Shown piece by piece: positions 18,001 to 21,000 of a DNA stretch of 64,000 nucleotides. A program made the position numbers. Location: NCBI GenBank assembly GCA_963824385.1, contig CAWGPD010000002.1, forward strand, positions 1 through 64,000. Reading direction: 5' to 3'. Source of the stretch: an uncultured Nitrososphaerota archaeon (GTDB lineage: Archaea; Thermoproteota; Nitrososphaeria; Nitrososphaerales; Nitrosopumilaceae). The stretch's first letter is position 1. Every line of letters begins with the position of its first letter.

Positions 18001-21000
18001 TATTATTGAGAAATATTTAGTTCGCATAGGATTAGTAAAAAGAGAAAGAAATCCAAAGAAGATTTCCATACTAGTCAAAAAAATGTTGGAAGATAAAAAA
18101 ACAAATAGAGAAAAGGCAAAAATAGTTTTGGCTTCAATGGAAGATCCTTACTTGAAATTAGTTCAAGTCATAAAGACGGTATAGATTTCAGAAAAATTTT
18201 ACGGTGTGTTTACTAATTTTTTATACAGCATAATAGCTGAATCTTCATCTTTTTCACCTACAATAACAGCTGATCCGCGTTTCAAGAAACTCACATAGAT
18301 ATCATTTGAAGAAATCGATAATCCAAGTTCACCTTGATTTTGTACTTTGAAGCCTTTCTCTGATGCAATATTAGTTATTTTTGGAACGTCAATCTCAATC
18401 ATCTTTGTTGGAGTAATAGAGAAAGTACGTTTTCCCCTGTTACGCCCACATAGTTCTTCAACAATGAGTTCCTGTATTGGTAATTCTTCATGTTTACCCG
18501 AACCACATTCTGGACATTCATCTACTTTATTGAAAACAGTAGTATTGAAATCCAGATTATCAAGATCAATGTAGAGTAATTTATTTGCCAATGTTGGAGT
18601 TCTACCTATCATAATTTTGACTGCCTCTGCAACCTCAATTCCTCCAACGATAGAAAGTATTGATGGGTGAACTCCCTCTGTACTACATGTAGGCATGGAA
18701 TTTTCATCCAGGGATGGAAATATACAATGATAGCATGCAGTTTGATGTGGCAAGATAGTAAATACCTGACCAGAAACTCCTACTGCAGCTCCTGTTACAA
18801 ATGGAATATTTTTTTTGATACAGGCTTTGTTAAGAGAATATCTTGCATTAACACTATCAAGTGCATCAATTACAACATCACATCCTTCTACTACATCTAA
18901 TGCAGTATAGTCATTTACAGAAACAGGTAGTGCCTCAATTATGGTATCTGGATTCATTTTTTTTAGTTTCTTTGCGGCTACCTCAACTTTGACCTGTCCA
19001 ATATCAGATTCATCAAACATTGTTTGCCTGTGCAGATTGGATAACTCTATCACATCTCTATCAACAATTCGTATTGTTCCTATTCCCATAGCAACCAGTC
19101 GTGTTACTATGGGATTACCAAGGCCACCCACTCCAACAACACATGCTTTTGCTTTTTTTAGTTTGAGTTGACCTTCATAGCCAATTTCTTCTAGCATTAC
19201 TTGTCTAGAATATTTTTCTAGATCTCTACTTGATAGTTCAGAGCCTCCTGCTACTGCAGGTAACACGTAAATCTCATCTCCATCTTTTAGTGATGTTTCC
19301 ATACCTCCTGAAAATCGCATATTTTTTCCGTTGATGTATATGTTGATAAGTGATCTAGGAGAACCATCTGGATTAAGAACTCGTCTTTTGAAATCATCTC
19401 CTAGTTGTTCTGAGATTTTAGCAAAGGCTTCCAAAAGAGTAGAAGCTTATCAAGTCCACTTTCTTTTCTCCTCCCCCTTTGTTTAATACGGAAGGAATTG
19501 TAAATTTGATATTTGCCATCTATCTCACCAATGCCGAAATTTTACCAACATCAGCCTGCATTACTTGAGGCTTTGGAAGTACTTCCATCATGACTTCTGT
19601 TGTTTTTAATCCATTACCAGTAACATAACATACAGTACAATCATTCTTGTCAATTTTTCCTTCATCAACCATTTTTTTCAATACTGCTACAGAGACACCA
19701 CCTGCTGGCTCTGTAAATATTCCCTCAGTTCTAGCCAGTAATAGTATAGCATCCAAGATCTCCTTGTTATTTGATTCCTCGGCAAAACCATTGTATTGTT
19801 TTAGTCGTCTCAATACATACTGTCCATCACCTGGATCACCTATTGCTAAACTTTTTGCTATGGTATCAGGAATTTCTACTGGGGTTACTTGTGAAAGTTT
19901 TTTCTTGAAAGCATCAACAATTGGTGCACAACCATGTGGTTGAGCTGCAATCATATGCATATTGGATACTTGATTGATTAATGAAATACTTTCTAGTTCT
20001 TCAAAGCCTTTACAAATAGCATTTAGCATGGCTCCGCTACCAACTGGCACAATAAGTTGATCAGGTACTTTCCAGTCAAGTTGTTCTGCTACTTCATAAG
20101 CTAATGTCTTAGATCCTTCTACATAATACGAACGCATGTTTATGTTTACTATTCCTATGCCTTTGCTGTCACCTATTTGAGCAGCAATTCGATTTGCGTC
20201 ATCATATGTTCCATCAACAGATATGAAATTAGCACCATAGGAAAGGGCTTGGGTTATCTTTGCATGCTCAATATCACTAGGTGCAAATATGTAACAAGGA
20301 AAATCACCTTTTGCTGCATGTGCTGCTGTAGCTGATGCAAGATTTCCTGTAGATGCACAACCTACTGCAGAAAGACCAAATTCTTTTGCTTTTGATACGG
20401 CTACTCCTGCAGGCCTGTCTTTAAATGAAAACGTAGGATTTACTGAATCATTTTTTACGTAAAGATTATTCAGACCAAGTGATTTACCCAATTTTTCTGC
20501 CTTAATTAATGGGGTCATTCCAGCACCAATACTTACTATATTGAATTTTGATTCAATCGGTAAAAGTTCATGATATCTCCAATAGGTATGTTCGCGATTT
20601 GAAAAAGTGTTTTTATTTACAGATGGAAAATCATAGTATACGTCTAGAGGACCAAAGCATTCCTCACAAATGTACTTGAATGTAGGAGCATATTCCTTCT
20701 TACATTCTCTACATTGTAGAAATTTTATTTTTCCCAAGACAATTCTACTTTATAAAATACTACATAAAAAATCCTAATATTAATTTAAGTGACACTTAAT
20801 TTACAGAATGCCAAGATTAAGTGAAAATTAATACAAAATTATGTGTAATTCTAAAAAAGATCCAATAATGAAAGAGACCATAACTTGAATATTCCATAAA
20901 TTAAGAGATTTTATGAATTTTTTACAAGTAGAAGAAATATTAATGATATCCGTAGAATGTAACTCGAAAATTGAAAATTAAAGAAAGATCAAAAAAGAAG

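Follow-up and report, generated by a model that had tools for sequence, protein, structure and literature searches.

In the CysO/CysM/Mec+ system of Mycobacterium tuberculosis and the HcyS/HcyF/HcyD/MetY system of Wolinella succinogenes, a protein thiocarboxylate reportedly acts as the sulfur donor for a PLP enzyme, and a JAMM protease is said either to trim the carrier (HcyS-Ala) or to free the product. These systems differ from the locus described here in having free-standing carriers, a PLP partner of the CysM or MetY type, and O-phosphoserine or O-acetylhomoserine as substrate. The closest described counterpart is the MetM/MetO/MoeZ/Mec pathway of Streptomyces albulus (Hasebe et al. 2024, as presented in passages of PMC13759103 (supplement S1D), PMC12172450 and a 2026 bioRxiv preprint). 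In passages of PMC12172450, a SAM riboswitch is placed upstream of S. albulus metM and a neighbouring carrier gene is compared with S. albulus metO. According to the same passages, a member from cyanobacteria, which shares 51.6% identity with MetM and is encoded beside a metO-like gene, was a threonine synthase and deaminase in vitro, and inducing it did not raise methionine. GapMind lists a '[MetO]-L-cysteine hydrolase Mec', and its 2026 version includes the MetM pathway; in its supplements Nitrosopumilus is named only for LysK and prephenate dehydrogenase, and no per-organism methionine assignment was found there. The present locus is like that of S. albulus in that a MoaD/SAMP-type carrier gene lies directly behind a gene for a ThrC-homologous PLP enzyme. 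It differs in its archaeal host, in having no SAM riboswitch, and in an E1 that is encoded within the operon and bears, where MoeZ has its rhodanese, a domain of TBP-like fold containing an invariant Cys; moreover, carrier and E1 form one polypeptide, so that 347 residues rather than one have to be removed. The best explanation, to which a probability of about 0.75 is given, is that the two genes form an operon that makes homocysteine in the manner of MetM/MetO, with the paralogue g01403 as the true ThrC.

The window analysed comprises the first 64,000 nucleotides of contig CAWGPD010000002.1 of an uncultured member of the Nitrosopumilaceae (assembly GCA_963824385.1; 86% complete, 5 contigs), and both genes of the locus lie on its minus strand. 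The upstream gene, g00477 (19520-20737), encodes, as an earlier note on this DNA had stated, a 405-aa PALP protein (PALP 240.8 bits), which lies over two NCBIfam threonine-synthase cut-offs; residues 9-27, near the N-terminus, form a motif like a Cys4 zinc ribbon, and the PLP lysine, K106 (codon 20422-20420), stands in the motif SFKDR. The downstream gene had been given as a ThiS+ThiF protein with ..PAVAGG directly before SELSS.., and such a protein is indeed encoded at 18199-19434. Its description as carrying ThiS at residues 18-64 and lying 85 nt from g00477 has to be abandoned, since both values are frameshift artefacts of this assembly and the gene was mis-called. The truncated ThiS and the 85-nt gap arise because one extra base at 19447 separates two frames: an ATG at 19519, directly after the TAG stop of g00477 (19522-19520), opens the first two beta-grasp strands in the other frame, the carrier domain is thereby divided between two frames, and the ThiS match crosses a stop. 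This surplus base is peculiar to the assembly; it is absent at full depth in contigs from all four public metagenome runs (4 studies), and the carrier-E1 frame is unbroken in 22/22 same-genus loci, or 19/19 without the unpublished genomes G011, G012 and G019. The open frame measures 415 aa here versus 438-440 aa in most congeners. The true second gene starts at ATG 19519 and encodes a complete 92-residue MoaD-type carrier that ends in Gly-Gly and is fused to the E1. The MetO-like carrier domain for sulfur, a beta-grasp of the MoaD/SAMP type that has 92 aa in relatives, occupies 19243-19519, with Gly-Gly at 19248-19243, and is followed in frame by the E1 adenylation domain of the ThiF/MoeB/UbaA type (18514-19212; ThiF 244.7 bits) and by a C-terminal domain of about 104 aa (18202-18513). 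Within 17000-22500 Rfam gave no match at E<=1, to a SAM riboswitch or to any other family, and control by a riboswitch would not be expected in this host; a sigma-70 promoter scan, which is unsuited to archaea, stayed at chance level (14 vs 12.8 +/- 3.6).

The genome does contain, as claimed, a second ThrC-like gene, g01403 (443 aa), and which of the two paralogues groups with MetM had been left open. Profile scores are of little help in this respect: g00477 reaches 311.7 bits with NF006050 (cut-off 303) and 295.5 bits with TIGR00260 (cut-off 167.1), and the ThrC equivalog cut-offs do not discriminate because Streptomyces MetM orthologues, at about 270 bits with TIGR00260, exceed them too. Over its full length g00477 is 43-45% identical to Streptomyces MetM orthologues versus 35% to Streptomyces ThrC. 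In the tree, g00477 and five orthologues of the order form one clade (SH-aLRT 100) with 12 representatives and the riboswitch- and MetO-linked actinobacterial genes (4 Streptomyces and 8 other loci). True ThrCs fall outside this clade, and a split with a support of 97 places g01403 with the ThrCs, which answers the open point in favour of g00477. The tree comes from a brief LG+G4 run and has SH-aLRT support only, and its MetM anchor consists of orthologues recognised by riboswitch and MetO rather than of the S. albulus MetM protein itself. In all these comparisons, related genomes are not independent of one another. A search for homologous proteins returned close archaeal relatives only, and two cluster look-ups gave one useful anchor, a Micromonosporaceae protein. 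At 16 clade-specific positions, 32 MetM-like sequences show conservation of at least 91% and all seven ThrC-side sequences differ from them; g01403 and the other six of these lack the MetM-clade residue at all 16 positions, and at 10 of them g01403 has the ThrC-side majority residue, including the whole NxSxNPxRxEGQK loop. This loop, which we take to be the canonical phosphate-binding loop of ThrC, is canonical in g01403 and in four actinobacterial ThrCs, and reads NINMRSYYVEGSK in g00477. As judged by sequence comparison, g00477 is orthologous to the Streptomyces ThrC homologue that is linked to MetO and controlled by a SAM riboswitch; g01403 would be the real threonine synthase.

Alternatively, g00477 could be bifunctional or mainly a threonine synthase/deaminase, sharing its operon with a carrier-E1 protein that works as a general Ubl system in tRNA thiolation or SAMP-like tagging. 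Its scores over the ThrC cut-offs would agree with this, as would the activities of a Microcystis member of the clade, for which ThrC and deaminase activity are given in a passage of PMC12172450, and the fact that the only E1 of the genome must also serve a second Ubl, a Urm1-like-Cgi121 fusion. This explanation is nonetheless considered unlikely: the canonical phosphate loop is lacking in g00477 and kept in g01403, a g01403-type gene is present in 41/41 genomes of the family while the g00477-type is missing from 4, and across the family the MetM-like enzyme and carrier-E1 occur together or are lost together.

A MetM-type role for g00477 is also suggested by the company that the gene keeps. 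Among loci of the order the ThrC-like gene adjoins carrier/E1 in 29 of 30, and in other Thermoproteota 18 of 20 loci (19 genomes) have the carrier gene directly 3' of the MetM-like one; in f25 genomes counted as MetM-like (47-50% identity), no adjacent carrier was present in the two loci examined. A SAM riboswitch lies directly 5' of the MetM homologue in all 13 actinobacterial loci (including 7 Streptomyces and 1 Actinacidiphila), and a frame ending in ..PAVAGG (once ..GGC) lies directly 3' of it in 11 of them. That the enzyme-carrier pair has been kept from Actinomycetota, where it is accompanied by SAM riboswitches, to Thermoproteota is a further point against a threonine synthase that only shares an operon. 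Among 28 long representatives of the ThrC family (12 with PadR, 10 with LeuA_dimer, 6 with nothing) no fusion to ThiS was found, and a rhodanese in a 517-aa PALP protein had no Pfam support. In 201 Thermoproteota genomes, a MetM-like gene is present in 62 and a Cys/Met-PLP enzyme (PF01053) in 82, with both in only 3 and neither in 60. Within the family, three genomes (G246, G250 and G255; 95-98% complete) are without MetM-like gene, carrier-E1 and PF01053; no Cys/Met-PLP replacement was found in them, PF01053 being matched in 0/41 family genomes. These three exceptions, together with the 60 genomes with neither system, imply that another route or auxotrophy exists.

A second alternative is that the product of the pair is not homocysteine but cysteine or some other thio-amino acid, formed as in the CysM/CysO system. 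The chemistry would be analogous, the carrier belongs to a family near the CysO/SAMP/MoaD types, and a separate CysM/K-like gene in the genome could also use the carrier. However, g00477 is of the ThrC and not the CysM type, its actinobacterial orthologues are placed under riboswitches for SAM (methionine) in 13 of 13 loci, and the distribution of the g00477-type is complementary to that of the Cys/Met-PLP enzymes. The genome has the CysM/K-like enzyme for cysteine and no other homocysteine route was found in it, and production of cysteine by this pair is regarded as quite improbable.

The remaining enzymes of the genome agree with homocysteine as the product. The genome encodes homoserine kinase (ThrB, 238.8 bits) and MetH (homocysteine-binding domain, 257 bits), as had been reported, and searches for the usual ways to homocysteine bore out their absence: no HTS/MetA, no MetX (best 15 bits) and no HcyBio were found in the genome, and the best Cys_Met_Meta_PP match (30 bits) falls on a DegT aminotransferase, i.e. 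not on a true enzyme of that family.

The carrier domain is 33% identical to Streptomyces MetO over 91 aa (E 1e-15), the alignment of 21 carriers is nearly gap-free, and in three of four relatives with a split carrier the protein ends exactly at Gly-Gly. The attached E1, which among solved structures is nearest to E. coli ThiF and MoeB, is the sole ThiF-family match over cut-off in the genome, and two ThiS-type domains exceed theirs, the latter as counted previously. The claim that this E1 has no rhodanese domain also holds, residues 308-411 having no Pfam match. The C-terminal domain was modelled with a pLDDT of 84.6; Foldseek returned nothing at E<=0.001, and its best consistent matches are TBP half-domains (TM about 0.38-0.40, ~75 residues), pointing to a TBP-like fold. 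Cys329 of the called ORF (codon 18450-18448) is invariant in 19/19 aligned E1s.

The carrier-E1 fusion is not new, contrary to what the earlier note had supposed. In passages of the literature the same architecture appears as 'Ubl-E1-TBP' of Thaumarchaeota (Makarova & Koonin 2010, PMC2948915), with which the fold result agrees, and as a MoaD-MoeB fusion, cluster 356.1, in 61 of 98 thaumarchaeal assemblies, filed under molybdopterin synthesis (PMC11237513). Neither paper links the fusion to a threonine-synthase-like gene or to methionine ('threonine synthase' occurs 0 times in PMC2948915). A function as MoaD-MoeB in molybdopterin synthesis, which is also the function given in the annotation, draws on similarity to the NCBIfam MoeB and MoaD_arch models and on the filing under cofactor biosynthesis in the passage of PMC11237513. 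The E1 and MoaD scores are, however, all below the curated cut-offs. MoaE is the obligate partner of MoaD, and the molybdenum-cofactor reading fails because MoaE was found neither in this genome (0/1) nor in the family (0/41 genomes, 39 of high quality), in a search whose control was positive in 11 of 14 known genomes; such a role is extremely improbable.

A complex of g00477 with the carrier was predicted with an ipSAE of 0.70 (runs 0.70, 0.66 and 0.70) versus 0.01 for the best control; of 157 solved complexes 116 attain the mark used, as do 2 of 215 mismatches. The partners have a pLDDT of at least 83, with a contact agreement of at least 79%. The predicted interface contains the carrier tail (residues 86-92), which is touched by 5 of the 16 clade-specific residues, and a carrier tail placed inside the enzyme is again not what a threonine synthase beside an independent Ubl system would call for. 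A CysM-CysO complex has reportedly been solved, and the result may reflect likeness to it. Since phylogeny, synteny, complementary distribution, clade-specific residues and the predicted complex all agree, g00477 is most likely a homocysteine synthase of the MetM type, to which the carrier encoded next to it would supply the thiocarboxylate. The interpretation given in the earlier note thus stands as regards the enzyme and falls as regards the novelty of the fusion.

The Gly-Gly of the carrier is held in a peptide bond with the E1, and a free end therefore requires cleavage. A precedent for trimming in MetO of the S. albulus type is one Streptomyces MetO (locus L118), which ends in ..GGC. On chemical grounds we infer that the carrier is cut after Gly-Gly by a JAB/JAMM protease; that this protease would free homocysteine as well, as the earlier note proposed, is a conjecture. 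The HvJAMM1 and Pyrococcus JAMM1 desampylases cut after the Gly-Gly of SAMPs. The two Prok-JAB genes said to be present in the genome were recovered, with the motif HSHP..S..D, and one of their products, JAB1, is like these desampylases in sequence (desamp_Halo 60.9 bits, below the cut-off of 130; PDB 5LD9/5LDA at E 7e-16). JAB1 occurs in 41/41 and JAB2 in 40/41 family genomes, including the three without MetM-like gene and carrier-E1. Phyletic patterns therefore do not name the protease, and its assignment by co-loss was rejected, as both JAB types remain where the system is absent. G247, in which the system is present and JAB2 absent, provides a weak hint for JAB1, and no JAB was found in G037, which has a split carrier and is 96% complete.

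For the proposed MetM/MetO-type operon the following sequence of events is suggested. The polyprotein would be cut after Gly92, most likely by JAB1, a step that is needed because the E1 can adenylate only a free C-terminal carboxylate. The released carrier would be adenylated by the E1 and then receive sulfur to give the thiocarboxylate; the sulfur may be supplied as a cysteine-desulfurase persulfide, perhaps via the invariant Cys of the TBP-like domain of the E1. The MetM-like enzyme would bind O-phosphohomoserine from ThrB and eliminate phosphate, and the carrier tail would enter its active-site channel, where the thiocarboxylate would add at C-gamma to yield homocysteine. Methylation by MetH would then give methionine. 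A broader proposition is tentative and somewhat doubtful, namely that ammonia-oxidising archaea and many other Thermoproteota share a self-contained two-gene homocysteine module, in which the carrier is freed from a carrier-E1 polyprotein by a JAMM protease and the Cys of the TBP domain, rather than a rhodanese, relays the persulfide sulfur. Release from a precursor would liken this carrier to ubiquitin.

The gain offered by the locus is limited because both the pathway (2024) and the architecture of the fusion (2010, 2024) had already been published and GapMind 2026 includes the pathway; the locus is best described as a fused variant of a known pathway. Few microbes of soil and ocean are as abundant as the ammonia-oxidising archaea, which grow on mineral media. 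Textbook homocysteine routes were found neither in this genome nor in the 41 family genomes, and the MetM/MetO assignment would fill this gap. It would also put right two widespread annotations, that of g00477-type genes as 'threonine synthase' and that of the fusion as 'molybdopterin-synthase adenylyltransferase', and would offer for direct testing an example of a ubiquitin-like protein of prokaryotes whose precursor includes the enzyme that activates it.

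The two threonine synthase (ThrC)-like paralogues of the genome fall on opposite sides of the divide between ThrC and MetM, the enzyme by which Streptomyces albulus makes homocysteine from O-phosphohomoserine and a thiocarboxylated carrier, MetO. The earlier note had left open which of the two groups with MetM; it is g00477, a PALP protein of 405 aa (19520-20737, minus strand). Searched without a profile, 1.84 billion representatives yielded 150 relatives with 33-58% identity, and in a FastTree phylogeny of 138 rows the clade that holds g00477 has 42 rows, with many high-GC sequences among them, including one named Micromonosporaceae. 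A scan of named genomes (alignment A1, with the Micromonosporaceae sequence as first row) gave 80 actinobacterial loci, including seven of Streptomyces. All 13 actinobacterial loci scanned for it have a SAM riboswitch on the same strand, just upstream, which scores 62.8-81.8 bits where the gathering score is 44.4; 11 have a frame with a ..PAVAGG end (..GGC in locus L118) just downstream, and no such carrier frame was found in the two from Micromonosporaceae. Because excerpts of PMC12172450 describe a SAM riboswitch upstream of S. albulus metM and compare a carrier gene in a neighbouring position with S. albulus metO, these riboswitch-linked genes are treated as MetM orthologues, recognised by riboswitch and MetO-like neighbour and not through the S. 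albulus sequence. In each of five actinobacterial genomes the ThrC family has exactly two members, the MetM-like gene and a ThrC of 352 aa. Over its whole length g00477 shares 43-45% identity with the Streptomyces MetM orthologues, against 35% with Streptomyces ThrC. A short IQ-TREE search under LG+G4 on 64 rows unites g00477 with five orthologues from the order, with 12 MetM-like genes of actinobacterial origin and with 12 representatives in one clade (SH-aLRT support 100), and g01403 (443 aa) stands opposite with the true ThrCs (7-row split, support 97). The carrier itself matches Streptomyces MetO at 33% identity across 91 residues (E 1e-15), and 21 carriers fit in 93 alignment columns. One Streptomyces MetO-like ORF (L118:4305-4601) ends in ..AVAGGC and the other seven from Streptomyces or Actinacidiphila in ..AVAGG; the former end is consistent with the '[MetO]-L-cysteine hydrolase Mec' of GapMind.

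A set of 16 positions tells the two groups apart: each is conserved to 91% or more among 32 MetM-like sequences and differs in every one of the seven ThrC-side sequences, g01403 included. They are concentrated in two places, the STGN(L/T) motif and one loop. The loop reads N-x-S-x-N-P-x-R-x-E-G-Q-K in ThrCs, where it presumably holds the substrate phosphate, and NINMRSYYVEGSK in g00477. The predicted enzyme-carrier complex, built from alignment A3 for the enzyme and from alignment A2, headed by the intact relative L033, for the carrier, scored 0.70, 0.66 and 0.70 against 0.01 for the best control, with partner pLDDT of at least 83 and contact agreement of at least 79%; 116 of 157 solved complexes attain the mark applied, as do 2 of 215 mismatched pairs, rates that are rough because our own alignments were used. 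The predicted interface comprises carrier residues 84 and 86-92, the zinc-ribbon-like segment (22-30) of the enzyme and five of the sixteen clade-specific positions (182, 200, 202, 234 and 304). The model supports carrier binding by g00477, and its score may have been helped by likeness to the solved CysM-CysO complex.

The neighbouring carrier-E1 gene was called as a ThiS+ThiF protein of 411 aa (18199-19434, minus strand); the operon is flanked by a convergent DUF354 gene on one side and, on the other, by an AT-rich gap followed by a divergent small membrane protein. The names under which near-identical proteins are recorded suggest that the genome belongs to the genus Nitrosotalea. The ThiS match of the called ORF lacks the first third of the profile and passes through a stop. 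Directly after the TAG of g00477 (19522-19520), an ATG at 19519 opens a different frame, which resembles strands one and two of a MoaD-type beta-grasp and joins the called frame near 19447. A 92-residue carrier with a ..PAVAGG end runs on in frame with the E1 in all 22 same-genus loci that span the junction (19 of 19 without the unpublished genomes G011, G012 and G019, loci L037, L026 and L039), and the base at 19447 is missing, at full depth, in contigs of four of four public metagenome runs from four studies; these contigs are 95-99% or more alike to the locus, and one run may be the source sample. Because the frame is intact in congeners and the surplus base is absent from all four runs, the 85-nt gap between the genes and the partial domain 'ThiS 18-64' reported earlier are assembly artefacts: the called model is wrong and the real product has about 439 aa. 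Several signs suggest that single-base indel errors are numerous in this assembly: TrpB matches lie in three different frames (G000:C1:88102-89079, in the genome under study), DnaK-like (206 aa, 14736-15356) and HisF-like (150 aa, 21852-22304) ORFs look truncated, and completeness is 86% in only five contigs.

The E1 is the product of the genome's sole ThiF-family gene and, as had been noted, has no rhodanese domain. Its adenylation domain is closest to E. coli ThiF and MoeB. The last 104 residues gave no Pfam family and are modelled as a TBP-like half-domain (pLDDT 84.6), for which Foldseek returned no significant match; a rhodanese identity was rejected on the Pfam result and the model. This domain begins with an EE(L/I)C(G/S/A)R motif whose cysteine, Cys329 of the called E1 (codon 18448-18450), is the same in all 19 E1s compared, each linked to MetM-like or MetO-like genes and drawn from across the phylum; one might guess at a sulfur-relay role for it. 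A molybdenum-cofactor reading of the fusion is removed because MoaE was found in none of 41 genomes of the family.

An E1 requires a free carboxylate on its carrier and Gly-Gly is conserved at the junction, so the fused carrier would be cut from the E1 after Gly-Gly. Both Prok-JAB protease genes, JAB1 and JAB2, carry the JAMM motif, and JAB1 is similar to Pyrococcus JAMM1 and, at a score below the cut-off, to the haloarchaeal desampylase. Among 41 relatives, 37 have JAB genes; the near-complete genome G037 has none, and its carrier is split, ending at Gly-Gly. Within the family JAB1 is present in 41 of 41 genomes and JAB2 in 40, and both persist where the MetM-like/carrier-E1 system is missing, so the proposed cleavage rests on chemistry and on the conserved Gly-Gly. 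Other genera of the order have a JAB gene immediately next to a second, paralogous Ubl/E1 pair with 33-37% identity (G030:C54:6871-8628; G026:C90:5944-7446; G036:C1:107862-109280); these look like JAB-Ubl-E1 operons separate from the MetM-linked one. The count of two ThiS-type domains in the genome stands: the second, Urm1/MoaD-like and ending ..LVHGG, forms an in-frame fusion with the KEOPS subunit Cgi121 (L015:1474-2253 = G000:C3:206801-207580, plus strand; NF011465, 120.8 bits), making it another ubiquitin-like domain with a buried Gly-Gly; a passage of PMC2948915 reports the Urm1-like-Cgi121 fusion in all Thaumarchaea. A 517-aa protein (L005:1063-2616, on G000:C4, minus strand) scores weakly (98.5 bits) for a CysK/M-like PALP core, and its C-terminus extends for about 140 more residues without a Pfam family.

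The carrier-E1 fusion is full length and in one open frame in 34 of the 41 family genomes and is interrupted by contig ends in two more (G249 and the unpublished G258); it is frameshifted in the present genome, a fragment at a contig end in G072, and not found in G246, G250 and G255. Outside the family, two loci of the order (L044, L046) have the fusion and four in other families (L047, L048, L049, L051) a separate carrier gene, which stops exactly after Gly-Gly in three and has eight extra residues in L048. G252 contains two full fusions (C17:10115-11425, C26:7001-8311) and three ThrC-family matches, and its operon appears duplicated. The novelty claimed for the fusion does not hold, the architecture being already in print: excerpts of PMC2948915 and PMC11237513 give, respectively, 'Ubl-E1-TBP' for Thaumarchaeota and a MoaD-MoeB fusion in 61 of 98 thaumarchaeal assemblies. 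In the literature searched, no paper was found that assigns the MetM/MetO route to ammonia-oxidising archaea; archaea may already be covered by Hasebe et al., by GapMind's web tables or by supplements on bioRxiv. GapMind 2026 includes the pathway, places N. maritimus among its prototrophs and names it for other steps only.

The genome encodes ThrB (238.8 bits), the MetH homocysteine domain and a class-V aminotransferase of the cysteine-desulfurase type, together with IlvA, a CysM/K-like protein and TrpB. In agreement with the earlier note, none of the usual routes to homocysteine was found in this 86%-complete genome: neither HTS, MetX, HcyBio nor a true Cys/Met-PLP enzyme turned up. Across 201 Thermoproteota genomes, each at least 85% complete, matches to g00477 are bimodal: in one group identity is at least 47% and full-length matches score no less than 387 bits, and in the other identity reaches at most 43% and scores at most 308 bits. 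MetM-like genes (E<=1e-99) occur in 27 genomes of the family and 35 outside it, 62 in all, and the Cys/Met-PLP family PF01053 (E<=1e-30) in 82; crossing the tables by hand gave both in three (G170, G202, G226) and neither in 60, where about 25 with both would be expected under independence, although related genomes are not independent. Family f31 is itself split (three MetM-only, five PF01053-only, two both). Nine genomes of family f25 (47-50% identity) are doubtful members because both f25 loci examined are without a carrier. The f25 genomes have three to six ThrC-family paralogues each; at L164 and L165 (G232, G054) the paralogue closest to g00477, with 47-48% identity, has no adjacent carrier or E1. 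A MetO-like gene lies directly behind the MetM-like gene in 18 of 20 loci from 19 non-family genomes, and nine also have the E1. In the family, the g01403-type gene is present in 41 of 41 genomes and the g00477-type in 37, the four without it being the four without an intact carrier-E1; PF01053 was found in 0 of 41. Three are therefore left without any known route, since g00477-type, carrier-E1 and PF01053 are all missing. These three (G246, G250 and G255, 95-98% complete) retain the g01403-type ThrC and both JABs, and they may be methionine auxotrophs or use another route.
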